DNA of 64,000 nucleotides from Spirochaetia bacterium (GTDB lineage Bacteria > Spirochaetota > Spirochaetia > UBA9216). The stretch lies in the NCBI GenBank assembly GCA_963675665.1, contig OY776510.1:544001-608000 (forward strand). The letters are read 5' to 3'. The translations under genes were made by a program, and so were the position numbers. Of the stretch, positions 8,891 to 51,482 are shown one piece after another. The notes beneath the pieces were generated by a model. That model saw only the letters and a program-made list of their open reading frames with translations, did no database searches and had not been told where the DNA came from. The first letter of the stretch is position 1. Every line of letters begins with the position of its first letter.

Positions 8891-9724
8891 ATGACGGAAG
8901 AAGAACTTTTAAATGTAGAAAAACTCAAAGCAGAGATAAAGAGATTAAAGGGTATAAAAAAGACCCTGCGACGCAATTTTCAGGATATGGTAGGACTGCT
9001 GACCACGACTATTTCACAGTCAAATAATTTTCTCGGCGGTCATATAAAAAGAACCGCAGTGCTTGCAAAAGCATTTGCGGAATATATGAGATATGACAAA
9101 GACACTATATATCGAATCTATTACGGGGCGCTGCTTCACGACCTGGGAATGGTAGGCCTTCCGGAAAAGCTGATTATTTCTCCGGCAGAATCGCTTTCGG
9201 AAGCGGAAACTGAACTTTTCAGACGTCACACGCTTATCGGCGAAAAAATGATCTCTTCAGCCTATGACTTGCGCCAGACAGCAAAGATTATCCGAAGTCA
9301 CCACGAAGAATTCAGTGGCGACGGTTTTCCCGACGGTCTTGCCGGCTCGGAAATACCTCTGGGAGCAAGAATAACAAGGCTATCAAACGATTACGACAAT
9401 TTCATATATAAAAACAAGATTCAGGCGACCGAAGCTGTTAAACGCCTTAAAGAAAGATCAGGCTATATTTACGACCCAAAATTATGTACGTATTTTATCA
9501 AATTCATTAAAACCAATGTTGAAAAACATGATAATGCATCCGAATCCACCGGAATACTGCTCCGTGATCTTAAAAAAGGAATGTATATCTCGGAAGATAT
9601 ATGCCTTCAGAACGGAATGCTACTTATTCCGAAGGGAGTAATTCTGGACAGTTCGATGCTGGATAAAATCAATTCGTTTGAATCACTGCTTGAAATGGAC
9701 CGTATTGTTTCAGTAGTCGGTTGA
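8891..9724 (+). CDS. HD-GYP domain protein (c-di-GMP phosphodiesterase-like)
   Basis: LLHDLG, HHEEFSGDGFPDGL, IPLGARI; N-terminal coiled coil. Confidence 0.9.
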   Translation: MTEEELLNVEKLKAEIKRLKGIKKTLRRNFQDMVGLLTTTISQSNNFLGGHIKRTAVLAKAFAEYMRYDKDTIYRIYYGALLHDLGMVGLPEKLIISPAESLSEAETELFRRHTLIGEKMISSAYDLRQTAKIIRSHHEEFSGDGFPDGLAGSEIPLGARITRLSNDYDNFIYKNKIQATEAVKRLKERSGYIYDPKLCTYFIKFIKTNVEKHDNASESTGILLRDLKKGMYISEDICLQNGMLLIPKGVILDSSMLDKINSFESLLEMDRIVSVVG

Positions 9725-9808
9725 TTACCAAATATGGGAACCTCTGATATGATGTGACCCATGTCAAGTTAAAATATCCAGGTTTTATCTATAAGATCCC
9801 CCCCCTGT

Positions 9809-10007
9809 CCAGGACAGGAAGAAAGATAGAACAACGTTTATGCGGCGATAGACCACTCTGATATTCGCGGATTGGTTACCGCAGGTCAATGGGATCGTCG
9901 GGAGCTGCCTCTGTCTAAAACCGAGGATCAATATTATTATTGCCTCATAGAGGTGCCGAGGGTTCTCCTTTATCACTGTTGTTGTTCTATCCATCCTTCT
10001 GTCCTGG
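9809..10007 (-). ncRNA. Predicted bridge RNA (seekRNA) of the IS110 element
   Basis: Closing stem (9809-9817 with 9999-10007; 9825-9835 with 9981-9991) encloses two internal-loop hairpins. Target loop carries GGCACCTCTA and GGTTTTAGA; donor loop carries ATTGACCT and ATATCAGA. Ends approximate. Confidence 0.85.
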
Positions 10008-10031
10008 TAGCTTATTAACCAACTATCGAAG

Positions 10032-11135
10032 TCATGCGACTTCTGTTCTACCTACCATCATTCCCCAAATAAATCCTGATAATTCTCTGGCAACTGCCGT
10101 AACAGTTTTCTGAGGGCATACCCCTCTACGAATCATCCTGAAATATTTCTTACTCAACCTTCTGCCGGCTTTATCAGCATAAGCTATTGTTTCAGCAGAT
10201 TGTCCTTTCCTTCTCGCTGTCAGTCGTTTCGATGGCGAATACCTTTGGTAATGCCAGCTTGATTCCACTAACAGCCGTCGTAGCCTGGAGTTGCCGGCCT
10301 TCGTAATCCCGCCAAGCTTCCGGCCCTCTCCGCTTGAGTATTCTGACGGCACAAGTCCAAGATACGCCATGAAGGATTCCGCTTTTTTAAATCTTCTGAA
10401 ATCTCCTATCTCGCATACAAATGTTAATGCTGTTAATGTCTCTATACCTTTGAAACATCGAAGCCGGGATACCCTTTCTTTATATCTGTCTTCAGCAGCA
10501 ATCTCTTCTATTTTTTCCTGCAACCGTTCAATCTTTTCCTCTAATTCCACAATCGCAAGATAATATTCTTTTAAAACTTCTTTATGCATTACCTGTTCAA
10601 ACTGCAAGTTTTTCAACCAGGTTCGATGCGCCCCTGTCCAGTACTTTTTCCCAATATCATATTTCTTCCCGTTCCTTAGCAGAAACTGTAAGAGCCTCTG
10701 TTTCTGTTTCCTCAAATCAATTTTCATATCGTTACACATCCTCATGTAATCACGAACTGATTCATCTGTGCGTGTCGGTATATTCACCGGTGTTATTTCC
10801 TGATTCCTTAATGCTCTGGCTAATTTGACTGCATCCCTCTTGTCTGTCTTTATTCGGTCTCCGGGTTTCCTCGGCAATAATGATGGTGCTGCTACGTAAC
10901 AGATAATTCCCATATCTTCAAGTAATCTATAAAGTGTAAATCCTGTAGGGCCTGCTTCGTAACAACACAGAATATTTTCTCCATTCTCTTTAAGTCGCTT
11001 GAAGAATCTTTTAATATTTCCGGGTTCGTTCCTGAGCTCTCTTTCAAACTCAGGATTCTGATAATTATCTCTGAATACCGCTACTGCGATTGATTCCTTG
11101 TGGACATCCATCCCTACATAAATTACACTATTCAT
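10032..11135 (-). CDS. IS110-family recombinase/transposase (DEDD RuvC + Tnp domain)
   Basis: VGMDVHKE, CYEAGPTG, KTDKRDA, AYLGLVPSEYSSG, GGITKAGN; ATG 11135 preceded by GGAGG. Confidence 0.97.
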   Translation of the reverse strand: MNSVIYVGMDVHKESIAVAVFRDNYQNPEFERELRNEPGNIKRFFKRLKENGENILCCYEAGPTGFTLYRLLEDMGIICYVAAPSLLPRKPGDRIKTDKRDAVKLARALRNQEITPVNIPTRTDESVRDYMRMCNDMKIDLRKQKQRLLQFLLRNGKKYDIGKKYWTGAHRTWLKNLQFEQVMHKEVLKEYYLAIVELEEKIERLQEKIEEIAAEDRYKERVSRLRCFKGIETLTALTFVCEIGDFRRFKKAESFMAYLGLVPSEYSSGEGRKLGGITKAGNSRLRRLLVESSWHYQRYSPSKRLTARRKGQSAETIAYADKAGRRLSKKYFRMIRRGVCPQKTVTAVARELSGFIWGMMVGRTEVA

Positions 11136-11314
11136 AGTGGCCTCCGTTCCTTTGTATGTGGCGTGTCTGCGCTTTGCCATTAGCCATTGTGTAGGCTAAT
11201 CCACGATTTTGCAAACACGGCGGTCACTTCATATTGTCTAAAACCCCCAATTTAGGGTTTTTAGAGGTCTCCATATATTATTAATTCGATATAATAAAAA
11301 AAAGGATTTTGACA

Positions 11315-13084
11315 ATGTTGTGCGAAATATGTGAATTTGAATGTGATATTCCTGAAAAAGGTACCGGAAAATGCGGAATGTATGAAATAAGAAATGGAGT
11401 CATACAGGAGAGATATCCTGATATGTATCTTATTTCAGTACCCGCCCCAATTGAAGCAATGCCTTTGCTGCATTATTATCCTAATACAAAATTCCTGCAG
11501 GTATGTACTATCGGTTGTAATTTCCGTTGCACCGGATGCGTTTCGTGGCTGTTAACGGAAAATGCCGAATCCATTGATGGAGTAATTGAGACAATAAGTC
11601 CTGATCAACTTATAAAGAAAGCTCTTGATCAGGGATGCTCCGGAATAATGTTCTGCTTTAATGAACCGGCGGTTTCCTTCTTCACTTTTAAGAGAACGGC
11701 AAAACTTGCAAGAGAAAAAGGCCTTTTCACAGGATGCGCTACAAACGGTTATTTTACGGAAAAATCTTTCGTGGAGCTTCTTGAGTATATTGATTTCATT
11801 AACATCGGGTTAAAAGGACATTCGGATAAAGCTTATAGAATTCACGGGGCCTTATCATATAAGCCCATATACCGGAACCTTGAGCTCAGTATAAAAAGCA
11901 AAGTTCATACCGAGGTTTCCCTGGTATATATAAAGGGAATGGAAGATGAAGTCATTGAAACAGTAAAACATATTGCTTCCATATCAAAAGAGACTCCTGT
12001 ACAGCTTATGCGATTTCTGCCCCTTTGCGACACTGATTATGATGACGAGCCTTCAATTAAAGAAGCAGAAATACTTTGTGACGAATTAAGGAAACTACTT
12101 GATTTTGTGTATCTGTTTAATTCCCCCGGCACCGAGTATCTAAACAGTGATTGTCTCCGTTGCGGCAAGCCGGTAATAAGAAGGGGGTTCAACGGCCCCA
12201 TGAACTCAAACGTGACTGAGACCCGGGAAGAAGCGATCTGTGAATGCGGTTACGGCCTGCCGATTAAGGGACAAATCTGCAAGGATAACGGACTGGAGGC
12301 CCTGGGGTTTTCCGGCGGATACAAGAATATAATGGCCCTTGAATTTATTCGGATAATTCTGGCGTTTCTGGGAGAGAACAACAGCAGTACGATAAGCAGG
12401 GTTCTGCTTGAAATAATCAAAACCGATTATATTAAAGACCTGTATTCCAGAATGAAAAAACCGGGAACATATCTCGATACAGTAGATCATTATGCAAGGC
12501 TGGCAGGCAGAGAAAAGGAAGCAGGGAATTTAAGAGCTTTTATTGAAGAAAATGTTGCGGAAATATCTGCTCAGGTTTTAAAAGCAGAAAATCCCCGTGT
12601 ATTTTTTGCTCTTAATCATCCCCTTATAGCTGTTTTCGGGGATAAATTTGACTGCAACCTTGTCGAGATTGCCGGAGGATACAACCTGAACAAGGACATA
12701 AAGCGCGAAGAAATACCGGGAGTGATGATTCCTGTTGAGACGCTAAATAAACTCAACCCCGAAATAATACTGGTATCCGGATCAAACGGGTATCCCGCTT
12801 CGGACGTTTATTCGTTCTATATTGACAAGGGAATGACAGCGGATGCAGTAAAAAACAAAAGAATATACAATGTTCACCCCTATAATACATCGGCTTCCCC
12901 TGACTGGATATTGGGATTAATGTATATTGCCAATATCATTCATCCTGAAATATTCAGTTTCGATCTCGAAAAAACAGCAGATCAGCTTTATCAACAACTT
13001 TTCGGAATCAATTATGATACATTGAACCATAACAGAAGCTTTGACGTATTACGCCTGGAAAGAATAAAAGCGGTACAAAAATAA
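11315..13084 (+). CDS. Radical SAM enzyme (AmmeMemoRadiSam/PflA-like) fused to a C-terminal periplasmic-binding-protein-type domain
   Basis: N-terminal CEIC...C...C, PIEAMPLLHYYP, GCNFRCTGC (CX3CX2C), FNEP, TNGY, C..CG; C-terminal PRVFF...LVEIAGGYN...LNPEIIL...AVKNKRIY...WILGLMYIANIIHPE, resembling the SBP at 16512-17648; no signal peptide. Confidence 0.88.
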   Translation: MLCEICEFECDIPEKGTGKCGMYEIRNGVIQERYPDMYLISVPAPIEAMPLLHYYPNTKFLQVCTIGCNFRCTGCVSWLLTENAESIDGVIETISPDQLIKKALDQGCSGIMFCFNEPAVSFFTFKRTAKLAREKGLFTGCATNGYFTEKSFVELLEYIDFINIGLKGHSDKAYRIHGALSYKPIYRNLELSIKSKVHTEVSLVYIKGMEDEVIETVKHIASISKETPVQLMRFLPLCDTDYDDEPSIKEAEILCDELRKLLDFVYLFNSPGTEYLNSDCLRCGKPVIRRGFNGPMNSNVTETREEAICECGYGLPIKGQICKDNGLEALGFSGGYKNIMALEFIRIILAFLGENNSSTISRVLLEIIKTDYIKDLYSRMKKPGTYLDTVDHYARLAGREKEAGNLRAFIEENVAEISAQVLKAENPRVFFALNHPLIAVFGDKFDCNLVEIAGGYNLNKDIKREEIPGVMIPVETLNKLNPEIILVSGSNGYPASDVYSFYIDKGMTADAVKNKRIYNVHPYNTSASPDWILGLMYIANIIHPEIFSFDLEKTADQLYQQLFGINYDTLNHNRSFDVLRLERIKAVQK

Positions 13085-17648: not shown

Positions 17649-17831
17649 TATCTTCACTCCATAATTTCCTGATATAAAAATAAAAAACATTTCTTTTTCT
17701 GCCTGAGGGTTTTAGATCAACCCACCCTAATCCGTCACCGGAAAAAAATGAGACAGTGAATAAAGAACAGAGACAATTCGATATAATATGGATAAAAAAT
17801 AATGACTAAGAGCTGTCTATATACATTCAGA

Positions 17832-17930
17832 ATCTCCTTTCCAAACACGGGAGGCTATGTCGTTTCCAACAGAACCCTATCGACGCAAGATCCATGGTGT
17901 AACCGGTAGGACGCAAGCGCTCGGAGTTAT
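17832..17930 (-). promoter_or_regulatory. Moco RNA motif riboswitch, P3-less (Tuco-type) variant
   Basis: Minus strand: ACTCCGAGC...CCTA..GGTTACACCATGG...AGGGTTCTGTTGGAAACGACATAGCCTCCCGTGTTTGGAAAGGAG. Has the P4 GAAA tetraloop, P5 and the SD-containing P1 strand; only CGAT where P3 would be. Confidence 0.85.
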
Positions 17931-17939
17931 TACAAATAA

Positions 17940-18042: not shown

Positions 18043-18116
<74 letters not shown>

Positions 18117-36724: not shown

Positions 36725-39394
36725 CTAATCATCTGTATCTCCGAACAGCATTCCAAAACCTGCCGGAACCATCCATTTGCCCCTATGCTCAGGGACAGTT
36801 GCAACTTCTTCCCCGGGTTCTTCGATTTCCGCAAGTTCTTCAGTTTTATCGGATTTTTTTCCGGGCATAAATGTATATCCGCCGGTGAGGCCGATACCAT
36901 ATCCCATAATTTCTTCATCTGTTTGATGTGCCATGACCCCGTAAAGACCTATATAAAAATTTTTATAGATAAAATTATATTTAACTGCGGCCATGCCCAA
37001 ATCAACCGGTAGATATATACCGGCTATCAAATGCGAAACAGATCTGTTCTCATTGGAAAAAACGACAGCCGGTAACGGCACCAGAAATCTACTGTTACCC
37101 GAGAAAATCAGATCCAGGACTGCACCCAGATAAATATCTCCAAAAAAATTATAGAGCACTCCGGATCCTGCCACCAAACCTGATCCAAGATAATATAAAC
37201 CGTATATTCCGCCCGCTCCTACAGGAACCATCCATTTCCCGCCGGTTTCAGAGGGATATACTGTCTCTTCCTCAGGCTCTTCGGTTTTCGCAATTTCTAC
37301 AGTTTTACCGGATTTTTTCCCGGGCATGAATGTATATCCGCCGGATATTCCAAGGTCAAAGGTTTCATCACCGATATGCCAGCAGCCCAGAACTCCGAGA
37401 TCAAAATTGTGGAAACCGAAATCATAAGCAAAAGCCGCGATTCCGGACCATGCCGGCAAATAAATGCCGCTGATTCTATGGGACATTGTCTGCTCATCAT
37501 TGATAAATGCCATGGACAACAACGGGAGGGGATAGAGTGAATTTATAATAGCTAATCCAATATCTCCTCCTGCATAAACATTACCAAAAAAATTGTACAG
37601 AACACCTGTCTTGATTAATATTCCGTGGTAATCATCATTAATCAGTCCGAATATTGTTCCGGCACTTACCGGAATCATCCACCGACTCTTTTCTGCTTCA
37701 ACCTCGACAGGTTCGTGAAAATTCATTTCCGGATGCTCACGAACGGCCGTATATTCGATCTCCAACGCTGCCTTATAGGCTTCCAGCCGCCCCTCTATAA
37801 ATTCAATTTTGTCGGCCGGAGTGTTTAATTCCGACAAGGCTTCCTTAAGCGGGATATATCCTGATTTAATCAAGTCAATATTCTCATAAAATTCGGATAT
37901 TCCCGTATTCGCATTGCATATCATTCCGGTTATTCCTAAACCGATTAATAAAGGCCCGCCGACTGCGCCTCCCCATTTTGTCCATTCAAGAATATTGGCC
38001 GTCAGGTAATTTTTTTCAATCAGTCTGTGCAGTTCTTCCAGTTCTACCGAGTCGACTGATGTCTGATAAACTTCATATGCCGCATCAGCCTCAGAAATCA
38101 GGTCTGCTGCCGGATTATCAATAAACATCCAGCTGCTTAAACCGGAAAGAGCAACTCCGGACAGAACCGATGACCAGGGCAGAAGATTGCCCGGTTTATC
38201 AGCCCGCTTCTTTCCGTATTCAAAAACGGCATCATTGAAGAAATAATATTCATCGATAAACTTTCTCCTGAATGCATTGCTGCAGCCTGGCAGATAATTT
38301 TCAGAAATCAGGTATGTTCCAACGCCCGATTCAAGCTCTTTTTCTGAAAATAAATCAAAAGCGGAAGCCCGCTGCAGATAAACGGCCAAATCAAAAGCCG
38401 AACTCTGATCTGCCTGCGACATGCTGTTGTCTTTTTCAAGCACAGGTAACATCCCGGCTTCGTATCCTTCAATCAACGAAAGTTTTGATTCAAAAAGCCT
38501 CCAGCTGTCGATCTTTTTCATTTTTTCTTTACCGTACCCGTTAAGACCGGTACAGAAATCTGTTTTGCTGAACAGTTTCTTTAATTCTGCCGCAGATGTT
38601 TCAGCTTCAGGATAATCTGCAATCCCTGTCATTCTTGCGTCCAAAACAGATTCAAGATTTTTGATCCGCGCCTCTTCTTCCGGCAATAAAAAAGGTATTT
38701 TAAACTCACCCTGGGCGGTCTGGTTTTCCAGTACTATAACCGGTTCTTCATGAATGATTACCTCATTGCCGAACCGGTGCTGCTTTACCTGCAATAAGTA
38801 CTCGCCGTTAAGAATGTTCTCAAAATAAAACTTGCCGCTGCCGAGGGTCAGATCATCAAGGAAGACAGTAAAAGACCCCTTTTCACCGGTATTCTCAAGC
38901 AGAAGATTTCCGTAGCCTATGTGTATCCCCGTGAGGGATTCAAGCATGGCCGTTACCGAATCATCCATCACGTCAAAAATGTCGAAAACGCTGACAATCG
39001 TTTCGGTGCGGCTTATTTCCACTTCTCCGCCTGAGAAATTATATACGTTTATATTGAATAATGTATTCCTGCCGACAGACTTGAGGTTTCCGTATATCAT
39101 TTTGTCTATCGAGTTTTCCCCGGCAAACTTTTCGATATCCGCTGATGTAATTCTCCGATCCGATTCAGGCATCTGATACATATCATAATCGCCTATAATT
39201 CTAAGCGTCATGTCTATCTGGCTGTCTATGAAACTGCATAATGAATCATATTCATACCGGCCGGTATCATTTGAAATTGGAACAGTGAGGATACGAAGAT
39301 TGAGGTCGGAAGGTTCGGAGTATATCGATAAACCGGTAAAAAACAGGTTTATTAAACTTAAAAAAAGAACCATGGAATATTTATTATGCTTCAT
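36725..39394 (-). CDS. Large secreted/membrane protein: TolB-N/CsgG-like and PEGA-like N-terminus, helical hairpins, tandem beta-rich C-terminal repeats
   Basis: Signal peptide; repeats of ~130 aa running WM(I/V)P...GVLYNFFG..Y.G...SH...G.YLP...NF..G..G...GGYTFMPGKKS. Confidence 0.75.
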   Translation of the reverse strand: MKHNKYSMVLFLSLINLFFTGLSIYSEPSDLNLRILTVPISNDTGRYEYDSLCSFIDSQIDMTLRIIGDYDMYQMPESDRRITSADIEKFAGENSIDKMIYGNLKSVGRNTLFNINVYNFSGGEVEISRTETIVSVFDIFDVMDDSVTAMLESLTGIHIGYGNLLLENTGEKGSFTVFLDDLTLGSGKFYFENILNGEYLLQVKQHRFGNEVIIHEEPVIVLENQTAQGEFKIPFLLPEEEARIKNLESVLDARMTGIADYPEAETSAAELKKLFSKTDFCTGLNGYGKEKMKKIDSWRLFESKLSLIEGYEAGMLPVLEKDNSMSQADQSSAFDLAVYLQRASAFDLFSEKELESGVGTYLISENYLPGCSNAFRRKFIDEYYFFNDAVFEYGKKRADKPGNLLPWSSVLSGVALSGLSSWMFIDNPAADLISEADAAYEVYQTSVDSVELEELHRLIEKNYLTANILEWTKWGGAVGGPLLIGLGITGMICNANTGISEFYENIDLIKSGYIPLKEALSELNTPADKIEFIEGRLEAYKAALEIEYTAVREHPEMNFHEPVEVEAEKSRWMIPVSAGTIFGLINDDYHGILIKTGVLYNFFGNVYAGGDIGLAIINSLYPLPLLSMAFINDEQTMSHRISGIYLPAWSGIAAFAYDFGFHNFDLGVLGCWHIGDETFDLGISGGYTFMPGKKSGKTVEIAKTEEPEEETVYPSETGGKWMVPVGAGGIYGLYYLGSGLVAGSGVLYNFFGDIYLGAVLDLIFSGNSRFLVPLPAVVFSNENRSVSHLIAGIYLPVDLGMAAVKYNFIYKNFYIGLYGVMAHQTDEEIMGYGIGLTGGYTFMPGKKSDKTEELAEIEEPGEEVATVPEHRGKWMVPAGFGMLFGDTDD
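36849..37344. repeat. ~37-bp near-identical direct repeat marking repeat-unit ends (36849-36885 and 37308-37344)
   Basis: CGGATTTTTT(T/C)CCGGGCAT(A/G)AATGTATATCCGCCGG, encoding GGYTFMPGKKS. Confidence 0.8.
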
Positions 39395-47041: not shown

Positions 47042-48121
47042 CTATTCGTTTATACCTTTGGTGCCTCTTTTCTTGAGATATTTATCCCAATAGAAGTAAT
47101 CAGCATTGTCTTTGGTTACAACTGCAAGTCCGTTATCAACAAAAGGTATTCCCATCGGGTTGTAACCGGCTGCTTCGAAATCATTCATCGGTTCAATCAT
47201 GTTCGGATGTGCTGCAAGATAAAGCATCAGCATTCCGTAGTAACCCTGTGTGCCCTGATTCGGGTTAAGAGCTGCATAGATATCGCCTTCTTTAAGCATA
47301 TCGAGAACCTTGGCATTGATGTCTACACACATTACCTTGATGCCGGTTCCGAGTTCCTTGGCCGCCTGTGCAGCGCCCATTCCTGAACTTGCTTCCGGCA
47401 TGAAAATACCACCGAGTTTCGGATGGGCCTGTGCCATGGTCATTACAGCCTGGTATGCCTTGTTCGGATCCTGGTTTGTTGCAGCTCTGGCAACTACCTT
47501 CATATTCGGATAAGTGCTTTCAATTCTGCTTACGAAAGATTTTACTCTCAGATCGTGGTTGTCCTGTCCCGGATTTTCAAGTACGGCTACTTCACCTTTC
47601 TCACCAAGAGCCTTGGCAATAGTATCGGCTGCATATTCACCTTCACGAACATTATCGGAAGTGATGTAGGAAACTCTCTTTGAGTTCGGAGAATCAGCGG
47701 CAAATGTAACAACAGGAATACCCATTTCGGCTGCTCTGTTGATAGGTTCAATAAATGCATCCGGATTCATCGGGTGAAGAAGAATACCGGCCGGTTTCTT
47801 TGCAAGAATCTGCTCAAATACTGCAAGCTGCTTGTTAACATCATACTCGGGAGTACCTGTATATACAGTTTTTACACCAAGCTGCCATGCACATTCTTTC
47901 ATCATTTCGTATACCGGGAACCAATATTCTACACCGGATACCATAACACACATATAGTAAGTTTCTGAAGGATCCCCGACAAACGGTGAATCTACACCTT
48001 CAGCCTCTGCGGCCGCGGAGGCTGCAGCTTCTTCTTTTGCACAGCCGGAAAACGCAAATGTTGCAATGATTGCCAGTATGATTAGAACAACAATCATACT
48101 TTTAGTTCTCATGTTTTTCAT
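47042..48121 (-). CDS. Sugar ABC substrate-binding lipoprotein
   Basis: FSGC lipobox, EYW, GIPVVTFAADSP..R..YI.SDN; ATG 48121 with GGAG. Confidence 0.93.
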   Translation of the reverse strand: MKNMRTKSMIVVLIILAIIATFAFSGCAKEEAAASAAAEAEGVDSPFVGDPSETYYMCVMVSGVEYWFPVYEMMKECAWQLGVKTVYTGTPEYDVNKQLAVFEQILAKKPAGILLHPMNPDAFIEPINRAAEMGIPVVTFAADSPNSKRVSYITSDNVREGEYAADTIAKALGEKGEVAVLENPGQDNHDLRVKSFVSRIESTYPNMKVVARAATNQDPNKAYQAVMTMAQAHPKLGGIFMPEASSGMGAAQAAKELGTGIKVMCVDINAKVLDMLKEGDIYAALNPNQGTQGYYGMLMLYLAAHPNMIEPMNDFEAAGYNPMGIPFVDNGLAVVTKDNADYFYWDKYLKKRGTKGINE

Positions 48122-48163
48122 AAACTCTCCTTTAAAGTTTTTCATGACATTCGTTAATTATAT

Positions 48164-48358: not shown

Positions 48359-49654
48359 ATGAATAGAATTCTTATTATAGATGATAACCGGAAAATACTC
48401 GACACGCTTTCACGAAATTTCCTTTCGGAGGGCATTGAATGCCGCACGGCTGCCAATACCGCCGAAGGCATTGAAGCGCTGCAATGCTGCCCGATAGATC
48501 TGGCGCTTGTCGATATACGCATAGGAGATGAAAGCGGAATTGATGCGCTTATCGAAATAAAAAAACTGATACCTGATATCCCGGTTTTAATGATAACCGG
48601 GTTCGGTACAATTGAAACAGCTGTTGAAGCCATAAAACTGGGCGCCAGCGAATATATAAAAAAACCTGTTCGTTTTCCGGAGCTTCTGAAACAGGTAAAA
48701 CTCTTTCTTAAGGACGAACCGAGCGAGCTGCCTGCAATTCCGAACCTGCAGACGAAAAATCCGCAGATGATAGCATTGATAAAAAAAGCGATCAAACTTG
48801 CCCAGTCGAATCTTTCGGTACTGATACTCGGAGAAAGCGGAACCGGAAAAGAGGTTTTCGCCGATCTTATTCACCGAAATTCTCCGCGAACTGACAATCC
48901 CTTTCTGAGGGTAAACTGCGCAGCTTTTCCCGATACCCTTCTGGATAATGAGCTTTTCGGGCATGAAAAAGGGGCCTATACAGGCGCTGATGATAAATTC
49001 CAGGGTGTTTTTGAACGTGCTGATACAGGGACCCTCTTTCTTGATGAACTCGGCGACATGCCGCTGGCCATTCAGGCCAAAATCCTCAGGGCAATACAGG
49101 AACATGAAATAAGAAGACTGGGCGGCAAGGATATTATTAATATAGATGTAAGGTTTATAGGCGCAACTAATCATAATCTAGAGCAGATGGTAGCTGAAAA
49201 AAAATTCCGTCAGGATCTTTACTACAGGCTTAACTGTGCCGCCCTTAAGCTTCCGGCTTTACGGGAACGAAAAGAAGACATACCTATTCTGACGGAATAT
49301 ATTCTCAACCAGGTCACAACACCGGAACGGCGGGTAAGCCTTGCTCCGGAAACCATGGAGACGCTTCTGTCATATGACTGGCCGGGAAATATTCGTGAGC
49401 TTAAGGCCGCACTGAATTACGGAGCGACAATCTGCACCAACTCGGTAATAAGACCGGAAGATCTTCCCATGGGTGATCATCCGGTAAAAATGGCAAGCAG
49501 CGGACTTTCTCCCGGGCAGGCTGTCGAGAGAGAGCTTTTTTTAAAAACCCTGATAAAACACGGGTTTAATAAAAAAAAGGCGGCTGAAGAGCTTGGAATC
49601 TCACGAACGACATTATACAGCAAAATGAACAAATACGGTATCAATGACCAGTAA
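48359..49654 (+). CDS. NtrC-family sigma54-dependent response regulator (REC-AAA+-Fis HTH)
   Basis: ILIIDD, LVDIRI, ITGFG, KP; GESGTGKE, GAYTGA, LFLDE, FRQDLYYRL, WPGNIREL, AAEELGISRTTLY; ATG 48359. Confidence 0.95.
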   Translation: MNRILIIDDNRKILDTLSRNFLSEGIECRTAANTAEGIEALQCCPIDLALVDIRIGDESGIDALIEIKKLIPDIPVLMITGFGTIETAVEAIKLGASEYIKKPVRFPELLKQVKLFLKDEPSELPAIPNLQTKNPQMIALIKKAIKLAQSNLSVLILGESGTGKEVFADLIHRNSPRTDNPFLRVNCAAFPDTLLDNELFGHEKGAYTGADDKFQGVFERADTGTLFLDELGDMPLAIQAKILRAIQEHEIRRLGGKDIINIDVRFIGATNHNLEQMVAEKKFRQDLYYRLNCAALKLPALRERKEDIPILTEYILNQVTTPERRVSLAPETMETLLSYDWPGNIRELKAALNYGATICTNSVIRPEDLPMGDHPVKMASSGLSPGQAVERELFLKTLIKHGFNKKKAAEELGISRTTLYSKMNKYGINDQ

Positions 49655-51482
49655 CGAACATGAGAACATAATAAAACTGAATAATATTTCCCTTAAATAC
49701 GGCCAGTTCAACGCTCTTAAAAACATAGACTTCACAATCAGAAAATCGGAGATTCACGCTGTAATAGGAGAACACGGGGCCGGAAAATCATCTCTGGCAC
49801 AGATTCTCAGCGGATACATAAAACCCGACGACGGTATTTTTCTTTGGAAAAATAATCCGGTCCAGCTGTCTTCACCCCAGGAAGCCAAGGAACTTGGTAT
49901 TGAGATTGTGATGCAGGAAATTGAACAGTATGAGCGTCTTTCCCTGTCGCAGAATCTCTTTGGAAACAGCCCGGATTTTTTTAAAAAGAAGTTTTTCACA
50001 CGCAAGGAGCTGAACAGAAAAACCGATGAATATTTCGGTTCGCTGGGTTTTTCATCCTTTTCCGGCGCCCAGAAAATTTACAGCCTCAAGGATACCGAAA
50101 AAGTTCTGCTTGAATTGTTAAAACACCTGCTGCCCCGACCCGATCTGCTGATACTGGACGAGACCTTCGAAAAAATGACCGCAGTGGATCTTAACAAGAT
50201 GATTCCTGTTCTGAAAGAACGAAAGGCTGAAGGTCTTGGAATCCTCTTTATTACTCACCGAATCGATGATGTTTACACCTTTGCCGATCGCGTTACCGTT
50301 ATACGAAACGGCAGAATTCTGACAACAGAATCGGTTAAAAACATCGATAAAATCAATCTTATCAAACTGGCCTACACCCAGGTTGTTCAGGAAAGCAGTC
50401 TCGATACGACAACACAGGAGTTCTACCAGCTTCTTAAATACAACAGGGCAATTCTTGAAACCCTGCCCGTTAACCTTATTGTCGTGGATGAAAACAGGAT
50501 TCTCAGACTGCTTAACAATAACGCTAAAAACTATTTCAGCATCGGAGACACCCCGGCTCTCGGCATACCTCTTAAAAAGCTTGATATCATCACTTCAAAT
50601 GATAAATTATACGAACAGATCCGGGCATCAATGGACAAGCGCAGGCTTGAGACCTTTACTACAAGACTGAAACATCACGACGGAAGGGAAACAATAAATT
50701 TTGTCACCGTCTACCCTATTTATGACGGTGTTTTGTTTATAGGCAGTATGATAATAATAAGCGACATTACGGAACAGGAGAGCCTGCGCGAAAAGCTTGA
50801 TTTTTCCGAACGCCTTGGATCCGTCGGACTGCTGGCGGCAGGAGTTTCGCATGAAATAAATAATCCTCTTGAAATCATAATGAACGAGGTAGATTATCTT
50901 CGAAAGACCTTGCCCGAGGGCGAACAACAAACAGTGCTTGATAATATTGAAGAAGAAGTCGGCAGCATTGAACAGATCGTAAGCAGCCTTGCAACCTTTT
51001 CAGACAGCTCGGCGCCGAAAACTGAAGACCTTGATCTCACGCCTCTTCTTACGCACATCCTGAACCTTGTCAAACATAATGCCGTACACAGGAATATCAT
51101 AATCAGTTTCACCGCGCCGGATGAAAAGATGATGCTAAGCTGCAACAGAACCGAAATCAAACAGATAATACTCAACCTGATAAGAAACAGTTTTGAAGCA
51201 ATTCATACCGACGGTATGCTCGAAGCAAGTCTTTCAAAAACAGTAATTGACAACAAGTCCTGGATTATGCTGATTTTCAGAGACACCGGACCCGGCATTA
51301 ACGATGATGATGCAAAAAAAATCTTTCTTCCGTTCTTTTCGAAAAAAACCGCTTCCGGTAATAATATGGGCCTTGGACTTTCTGTTTCCTACGGCATTAT
51401 AAACAAAATGAACGGTAAAATCAGCGTAGAGAACCATCCCGATGGCGGCTGCAAATTCACCATTCTGCTTCCTGCATCATAA
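49644..51482 (+). CDS. Soluble histidine kinase with an N-terminal sugar-ABC ATPase domain (NBD-PAS-HisKA-HATPase)
   Basis: GEHGAGKS, GIEIVMQE, LLILDE, FITHRIDDV..FADRVTVIRNG; PAS-like ILETLPVNLIVVD; SHEINNPL, NLIRNS, DTGPGI, FLPFFS, GLGLS; no TM. Confidence 0.92.
   Translation: MTSNEHENIIKLNNISLKYGQFNALKNIDFTIRKSEIHAVIGEHGAGKSSLAQILSGYIKPDDGIFLWKNNPVQLSSPQEAKELGIEIVMQEIEQYERLSLSQNLFGNSPDFFKKKFFTRKELNRKTDEYFGSLGFSSFSGAQKIYSLKDTEKVLLELLKHLLPRPDLLILDETFEKMTAVDLNKMIPVLKERKAEGLGILFITHRIDDVYTFADRVTVIRNGRILTTESVKNIDKINLIKLAYTQVVQESSLDTTTQEFYQLLKYNRAILETLPVNLIVVDENRILRLLNNNAKNYFSIGDTPALGIPLKKLDIITSNDKLYEQIRASMDKRRLETFTTRLKHHDGRETINFVTVYPIYDGVLFIGSMIIISDITEQESLREKLDFSERLGSVGLLAAGVSHEINNPLEIIMNEVDYLRKTLPEGEQQTVLDNIEEEVGSIEQIVSSLATFSDSSAPKTEDLDLTPLLTHILNLVKHNAVHRNIIISFTAPDEKMMLSCNRTEIKQIILNLIRNSFEAIHTDGMLEASLSKTVIDNKSWIMLIFRDTGPGINDDDAKKIFLPFFSKKTASGNNMGLGLSVSYGIINKMNGKISVENHPDGGCKFTILLPAS

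Follow-up and report, generated by a model that had tools for sequence, protein, structure and literature searches.

The mechanism of RNA-guided recombination in the IS110 family of insertion sequences (IS), the location of the RNA 3' of the gene and the reversed guide order of IS1111 elements were published in 2024 (Durrant 2024, PMC11208160; Siddiquee 2024, PMC11187229). An IS110-family element of the IS1111 type, 1.49 kb long, is described here from a 64,000-nucleotide (nt) stretch of bacterial DNA (contig OY776510.1, positions 544,001 to 608,000), called the window below, where it occupies 9746-11239 on the minus strand. It is an example of a mechanism already known and leaves existing knowledge unchanged; the features presented as surprises in an earlier note on this DNA (the original prediction) are already described for IS1111 elements. 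It is, however, a natural bridge-recombinase system of the IS1111 type with clear limits, in which the four guides, the core, the handshake bases and the ends are all directly readable, and it can serve as an additional orthologue among bridge-recombinase tools and as a clear illustration of how guides and flanks covary.

The IS1111 elements ISEc11, ISKpn4, ISPa11 and ISPst6 (PMC11187229; PMC11208160, Fig. 6) resemble the window element in their long 3' non-coding region and subterminal inverted repeats, and the GL-P----SG motif of IS1111 elements is common to the window recombinase. The published IS1111 seekRNAs have short guides to both target strands; as here, these overlap where the element inserts, and the match to the top strand lies 5' of that to the bottom strand. 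A bridge RNA was predicted in the right end (RE) of 93% of IS1111 elements (Durrant 2024, PMC11208160). The window element differs in its host, probably an uncultured Spirochaetota-like organism, and in its recombinase, which is distant in sequence and has 367 amino acids (aa), where IS1111 transposases are quoted as having 330-350 aa (Siddiquee 2024, PMC11187229), a range that is descriptive rather than a strict criterion. The seekRNAs are 82-96 nt long and, in the published account, are described for their target matches, whereas the window RNA has a second loop that matches and covaries with the ends of the element. By description, a further likeness is to ISPpu9 from Pseudomonas putida (PMC12288879), with its insertion in a repetitive extragenic palindrome (REP) and its small RNA Ssr9 3' of the transposase.

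IS621 (Durrant 2024; Hiraizumi 2024, PDB 8wt6) also has a DEDD and Ser recombinase, a two-loop RNA and a CT core, with CT in the 5' guides and AG in the 3' guides (Durrant 2024, PMC11208160). In both systems one donor guide is discontiguous, although it is the right donor guide (RDG), on the 3' side, in IS621 and the 5'-side guide in the window; in both, the two bases that follow the core in the 3' guides match non-cognate DNA (handshake bases). The RNA of IS621 lies 5' of the gene, whereas that of the window element lies 3' of it, and the subterminal inverted repeats of the window element are long. The window gene and RNA are transcribed from the AG strand, so that in the gene sense the top-strand match comes first and the guide order is reversed relative to the gene; this is the order reported by Siddiquee 2024 (PMC11187229) in contrasting IS1111 with IS110. 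Similarity between the two recombinases is weak (E = 2e-10 to PDB 8wt6) and lies in the C-terminal domain.

Recombinase gene, element ends and insertion site

The element and its insertion site comprise the following features.

9746-11239, minus strand: complete element of 1494 base pairs (bp), counting the left 2-nt core, with junctions read from the sequence; the body without the core is 9746-11237
11238-11239, minus strand: left copy of the core dinucleotide AG (CT on the plus strand); AG stands at both junctions and is included in both target guides
9744-9745, minus strand: right copy of the core dinucleotide AG, read at the junction; AG also bounds the relatives
11222-11232, minus strand: left subterminal inverted repeat ATGAAGTGACC, complementary to 9749-9759 at 10 of 11 positions
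9749-9759, minus strand: right subterminal inverted repeat GGTCACATCAT, read from the sequence; its partner is 11222-11232
10032-11135, minus strand: recombinase gene, 367 aa, with ATG at 11135 and GGAGG at 11141-11145, 5 nt upstream
9732-9745, plus strand: first part of the 5' arm of the target hairpin, which is split by the element and resumes at 11240-11246
11255-11276, plus strand: intact 3' arm of the target hairpin, in which 11257-11271 matches the target with 3 mismatches
9762-9767, minus strand: TTGACA, a -35-like hexamer facing out of the RE, which in a circle would stand 17 nt before GACAAT (core and left end)

The recombinase matches PF01548 (DEDD_Tnp_IS110, E = 2.7e-13), PF02371 (Transposase_20, E = 3.5e-22) and NCBIfam NF033542, 'IS110 family RNA-guided transposase', at 240 bits against a cutoff of 140. 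It has the N-terminal RuvC-like DEDD domain and the C-terminal Tnp domain with a catalytic Ser that characterize the IS110 family, and its residues D10, E60, D98, D101 and S268 align with D11, E60, D102, D105 and S241 of IS621, which were named as residues of the composite active site (Hiraizumi 2024). The signature GL-P----S(t)G, given for the C-terminal domain of IS1111 transposases (Siddiquee 2024, PMC11187229), is found as GLVPSEYSSG at residues 260-269, of which G260, P263, S268 and G269 are invariant in an alignment (A1) of 34 sequences that includes the window recombinase as one row. The open reading frame (ORF) is uninterrupted and keeps all 55 invariant columns of A1. An alternative in-frame ATG upstream, at 11180, would give a protein of 382 aa.

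In the gene sense, the left flank ends with GGGGGTTTT at 11240, followed by AG (11239-11238) and the conserved start ACAATATGAAGTGACC; the right end runs through GGGTCACATCATATC up to 9746, followed by AG (9745-9744) and the flank AGGTTCCC. The start of the left end (LE), AG followed by ACAATATG, and the end of the RE, CATATC followed by AG, recur in relatives whose flanks are unrelated. As in the IS110 family generally, there are no terminal inverted repeats, and only the 2-nt core is repeated at the junctions; site-specific insertion is supported by the AG at both junctions and by the symmetrical hairpin that the rejoined flanks form. The inverted repeats at 11222-11232 and 9749-9759 are subterminal, fall within the 7-17 bp described for IS1111 elements and covary among relatives. 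The LE has 102 nt and the RE 286 nt of non-coding sequence, so the longer non-coding region is 3' of the gene, as in IS1111, and holds the RNA (9809-10007; gene stop at 10032).

The reconstructed empty site is a hairpin of about 20 bp (-25.6 kcal/mol). An HD_5 gene (8891-9724) ends 8 nt before the start of this hairpin, and a radical-SAM/Peripla_BP_2 gene (11309-13084) follows downstream. The element lies within one of its arms.

The bridge RNA and its four guides

The RNA features are as follows.

9809-10007, minus strand: seekRNA-like bridge RNA of about 199 nt, including both arms of the outer stem; among 10 relatives, this stem shows numerous compensatory changes
9840-9974, minus strand: conserved two-loop core of the RNA; covariance-model match of 149.2 bits, E = 2.2e-32, the sole match in the window
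9968-9901, minus strand: target loop, with GGCACCTCTA at 9957-9948 and GGTTTTAGA at 9922-9914
9948-9957, minus strand: 5' guide of the target loop, GGCACCT-CT-A, complementary to the gene-sense right flank, the core and 1 nt
9912-9922, minus strand: 3' guide of the target loop, GGTTTT-AG-AC(A), in the same sense as the left flank and core, then 2-3 nt matching the element start
9900-9843, minus strand: donor loop, with ATTGACCT at 9890-9883 and ATATCAGA at 9864-9857
9883-9890, minus strand: 5' guide of the donor loop, ATTGACCT, complementary to the LE start with a discontinuity
9856-9864, minus strand: 3' guide of the donor loop, ATATC-AG-AG, in the same sense as the RE end and core

RNAfold of 9790-10031 (minus strand) gives a long outer stem around two stem-loops, each with a large internal loop, at -75.8 kcal/mol (z = -2.65; 2 of 200 shuffles fold equally well). 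The arms of the outer stem, 9809-9835 and 9981-10007, are 27 nt long and 85% complementary, which agrees with the original prediction that an outer stem closes both loops; the loop sequences quoted there all lie on the minus strand where it had placed them. An alignment was made of the window RNA and those of nine relatives taken from genomes, and RNAalifold on these 10 sequences returned the same architecture, with compensatory changes in 28 of 58 pairs. RNAalifold also paired the 5' donor guide with the 3' one; since the donor site is a palindrome, the donor-guide positions were left unpaired in the model. The trimmed core alignment (A3) has 30 pairs set by hand and open loops. Standard pairs make up 94.3% of its cells, as compared to 86.7% in shuffles and 32-46% with partners slid, and 10 pairs changed on both sides; the observed covariation was reached by 0 of 500 shuffles, with the caveat that the structure was derived from those same sequences.

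A covariance model with homologues, which had been proposed as a check, was built from A3 (10 sequences, including the window). At the threshold of E <= 0.01 it gives 76 matches, namely one in the window and one in each of 75 among 80 related loci, which come from many phyla; all are on the strand of the recombinase gene and shortly 3' of its stop. The two stem-closed internal loops are conserved across these orthologues. A match is absent in five of the 80 loci (L013, L016, L045, L051 and L069), of which L013, L016 and L069 have at most 214 nt of sequence 3' of the gene. Rfam at its gathering score matched no family in the element, and a permissive Rfam scan of 9650-11350 gave two chance-level matches only (E = 4-7), both on the opposite strand. 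A promoter and terminator scan of the same interval gave 3 promoter-like sites, where 4.3 are expected, with none placed to drive the RNA and with no terminator after it.

The guides of the target loop address both target strands and overlap at the core. As had been predicted, the 5' target guide is the reverse complement of T-AG-AGGTTCC at 9 of 10 positions and the 3' target guide is identical to the left flank and core at 9 of 9. The latter match extends to an exact 11-mer with the left junction (9912-9922 equals 11235-11245), and this 11-nt exact repeat is best read as the guide, the core and a 2-nt handshake match to the element end. A 7-mer, TAAAACC, at 9787-9781 (minus strand) is complementary to the target as well. 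Its position is outside the loops, between the RNA and the RE, and the match is probably due to chance.

Covariation of guides with flanks across relatives is the decisive control for the guide matches. Element ends were located by the conserved end motifs only (at most 2 substitutions in the LE pattern and 1 in the RE pattern), loop columns were taken from the model alignment, and rows without a recognizable end or enough flank were dropped; once identical pairs of guide and flank had been collapsed, the 76 rows were reduced to 47 for the 5' guide and to 55 for the 3' guide. The 5' target guide matches its own right flank at a mean of 4.26 of 7 positions, as compared to 1.70 for cross-pairings, and the 3' target guide matches its own left flank at 3.38 of 6, as compared to 1.88. 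For either guide, 0 of 10,000 permutations were as high, so that the test of guide-flank covariation suggested in the original prediction comes out in its favor. Outward from the core, the match rates are 0.91, 0.79, 0.79, 0.74, 0.57, 0.23 and 0.21 for the 5' guide and 0.95, 0.89, 0.64, 0.36, 0.24 and 0.31 for the 3' guide, suggesting that in this clade the 5' guide reads about 5 nt and the 3' guide about 3-4 nt beyond the core. The earlier proposal that the right target guide may pair over 6 nt beyond the core is therefore not supported for the family, as the rates of the 3' guide fall to background after the fourth position, although it may apply to the window element. The first loop base of the 3' guide, counted within the 6 of 6 match of the window, is G in nearly all rows and is therefore probably structural. 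Many single loci match poorly (scores 1-3), as would be expected if some were copies at suboptimal sites or if some ends were mis-set.

The donor loop relates in the same manner to the RE-core-LE junction of a circle. The 8-mer ATATCAGA of the 3' donor guide is identical to the RE end, the core and the first LE base, and the 5' donor guide is complementary to the LE start, discontiguously in the window. The predicted complementarity of the donor loop to the circle junction was thus found, and both guides follow variant ends in relatives (judged by eye). The 3' guide mirrors the RE variants ATATAAG (L006), ATAACAG (L031), ATAGCAG (L076) and ATATGAG (L028), and the 5' guide mirrors the LE variants ACTGTC (L058), AGGGTC (L038) and ATGGTC (L060).

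In IS621, each 3' guide has two bases beyond the core complement that pair, once strands have been exchanged, with the non-cognate DNA (Hiraizumi 2024), a model that predicts target-loop bases that match the donor and not the target. In the window, the target loop has AC at this place, as at the start of the LE, and the donor loop has AG, as at the start of the right target flank; the handshake reading accounts for the 11-mer between the 3' target guide and the left junction. Counted over distinct rows, agreement of the target-loop bases is 25 of 25 and 15 of 25 with the LE, as compared to only 4 of 22 and 5 of 22 with their own target. The match to the LE is mostly conservation, given that the LE start is almost invariant, although two TC variants do covary. 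The window RNA naturally has both handshake dinucleotides complementary to non-cognate DNA, which is the configuration that improved IS621 in vitro.

Proposed mechanism and alternative explanations

From the gene, the ends, the structure of the RNA, the matches of its guides to flanks and element ends and their covariation across relatives, all of which are observed, the locus is very probably a structurally intact IS1111-type element of the IS110 family, with a two-loop bridge RNA 3' of its gene, inserted in an arm of an intergenic hairpin. In this respect the original prediction of an intact IS110/IS1111 element with such an RNA was borne out by protein families, ends and RNA conservation. 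The 3' non-coding end would encode a bridge RNA of about 200 nt with two internal loops. The 5' side of the target loop (N7-CT-A) would pair with one target strand, right of the core, and the 3' side (N-AG-AC) with the other strand, left of the core, and the sides of the donor loop would pair likewise with the RE-core-LE junction of the excised circle. The RNA-bound DEDD/Ser recombinase would unite the circle with the target, with strand exchange at the CT/AG core, as for IS621, and the element would by this route have entered one arm of the hairpin between the HD-domain and radical-SAM genes. The two post-core bases of each 3' guide would act as handshake guides. The RNA is presumably made, and the window copy, probably active and reprogrammable according to the original prediction, may still be mobile.

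A promoter formed at the circle junction is a known feature of the IS110 family. Formation of the circle would place TTGACA 17 nt before GACAAT and thereby create a putative junction promoter, and of 50 distinct RE contexts at least 34 have a TTGAC-like hexamer at this distance, give or take 1 nt.

Several observations weigh against this interpretation, and some of them (the single copy, the imperfect guides and the first handshake base) would suit a genuine IS1111-type bridge-RNA element of which this copy is immobile, a fixed single insertion with suboptimal pairing of RNA or site. The RNA-model search found no further copy in the 64-kb window (one match only), and a search of the window for the 15-nt target pattern with at most 3 mismatches gave no more than 2 matches, where 1.85 are expected, one being the other hairpin arm and one a chance site. 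The 5' target guide is mismatched (guide C, target A) at 5 nt from the core, and pairing of the 5' donor guide is discontiguous (ATTG..CT against ATTGT-CT). The first handshake base (A) is able to pair with its own target, and cognate pairing of a handshake base inhibits strand exchange in IS621 (Hiraizumi 2024). Donor-loop handshake covariation is weak (14 of 38 and 12 of 38, or 26 matches as compared to 18.6 expected; 251 of 10,000 permutations are as high), and the recombinase is longer than the quoted IS1111 range, with relatives of 363-368 aa. Chance must be considered as well, in that 97 of 2000 mononucleotide shuffles (about 5%) gave a 9-nt match of the 286-nt non-coding sequence 3' of the gene to the 42-nt target; taken alone, the window excludes a chance guide match only moderately. 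Decayed relatives also exist, one of which (L011) has a truncated gene and a truncated RNA. Loss of mobility is nonetheless rather unlikely for the window copy, whose ORF is uninterrupted with 55 of 55 invariant A1 columns kept (the window being an A1 row), whose ends and inverted repeats are intact and whose RNA is the top-scoring match, albeit to a model that it helped build. The mismatch at the fifth position recurs in L006 and L012 and the discontiguous donor guide in L001, L002, L004 and L041, which suggests features of the clade rather than decay.

Two other explanations would deprive the RNA of its guiding role. The target could be chosen mainly by the protein through the hairpin or palindrome, with RNA complementarity as a by-product of copying part of the target, and it is true that the target lies within a hairpin of about 20 bp and that IS110/IS1111 elements are often described in palindromes (REP-targeting ISPpu9 and elements that target attC or inverted repeats). 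This is very improbable, as the guides, at fixed structural positions in internal loops, covary in 47 and 55 distinct pairs with flanks that are unrelated, the window target recurs in L006 and L012 with no obvious hairpin partner in the flanks of these two (by eye), and reprogramming has been published in both subfamilies (Durrant 2024, PMC11208160; Siddiquee 2024, PMC11187229). That the structured 3' region is only a terminator or a 3' untranslated region that stabilizes the transposase mRNA is scarcely credible. Its position directly 3' of the stop codon, the lack of an Rfam family match and the lack of a separate promoter in the 9650-11350 scan would be compatible with such a role, but it has no U-tract terminator, and its variable parts are unpaired loop bases that track flanks and ends, which a terminator would not need.

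Relatives, host and neighboring genes

The closest recombinases are metagenomic, with at most 77% identity. Among the 80 related loci, none of which is from the source genome, the best reference-genome relative (72% identity) is from a Vulcanimicrobiota metagenome-assembled genome (MAG); the next best are mostly from Spirochaetota, followed by many other phyla at 40-50%. The best named relative of a neighboring gene is from a Spirochaetes MAG (73%). The relatives of both genes suggest that the host is probably an uncultured Spirochaetota-like bacterium, and the 'under-sampled lineage' of the original prediction appears plausible, judging by the 77% and 73% identities of these best relatives. 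IS4321/IS5075-family genes align only over residues 198-293 of the recombinase (37.5% identity).

The Leptospira elements of the IS110 family (NZ_CP136246.1, L010 and L013) belong to the same clade as the window element by full-length protein similarity, at less than 50% identity; the L. interrogans plasmid NZ_CP136246.1 carries the best plasmid relative (47% over the full length). The element at L010 has an RNA-model match of 57 bits and the same CATATC end followed by AG as the window, with its target loop largely missing from the model alignment. These relatives are possibly the IS1533 group, IS1533 being a Leptospira element. In the account of Siddiquee 2024 (PMC11187229), IS1533 is named as the most abundant IS1111 member.

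Three elements share one target. The window (9743-9736 and 11240-11245), L006 (2096-2109 and 3573-3580) and L012 (92-105 and 1562-1569) all lie within the 14-nt sequence TTTT-AG-AGGTTCCC, in three different Spirochaetota-like genomes with unrelated flanks beyond the target. The recombinase of L006 is 51% identical to that of the window and the recombinase of L012, from a Treponema MAG, 46% identical. The three have a nearly identical 5' target guide, each with C in the guide against A in the target 5 nt from the core. There is a slim chance that this reflects a conserved host motif read with a fixed non-Watson-Crick position, or exchange of guide modules between distant elements; shared ancestry plus chance is the alternative.

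A Pseudomonadales MAG (OZ242357.1) contains eight copies of a related element with identical RNAs (L068, L071 and L073-L078), most of whose left flanks have ACTT as their last bases, in agreement with the 3' target guide GAACTT. The decayed relative at L011 (2501-3360) matches the recombinase over residues 86-330 only, and its RNA is cut within the donor loop and followed by unrelated sequence.

The gene beyond the target hairpin (11309-13084, plus strand) encodes a radical-SAM domain fused to Peripla_BP_2, with full-length relatives in Spirochaetes, Geobacteraceae, Holophaga and methanogens. Elsewhere in the window, an ORF of 367 aa (47042-48145), considered as a second recombinase given its equal length, was rejected, as it encodes a periplasmic binding protein. 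An 889-aa ORF at 36725-39394 (minus strand) has no Pfam match at E <= 0.001. An unusual histidine-kinase fusion of 612 aa is encoded at 49644-51482 (plus strand), in which an ABC-transporter ATPase domain is joined to PAS, HisKA and HATPase_c domains. A Moco (molybdenum/tungsten cofactor) riboswitch (65 bits) is found at 17818-17938 (minus strand), with an adjoining tRNA gene at 18043-18116 (plus strand).

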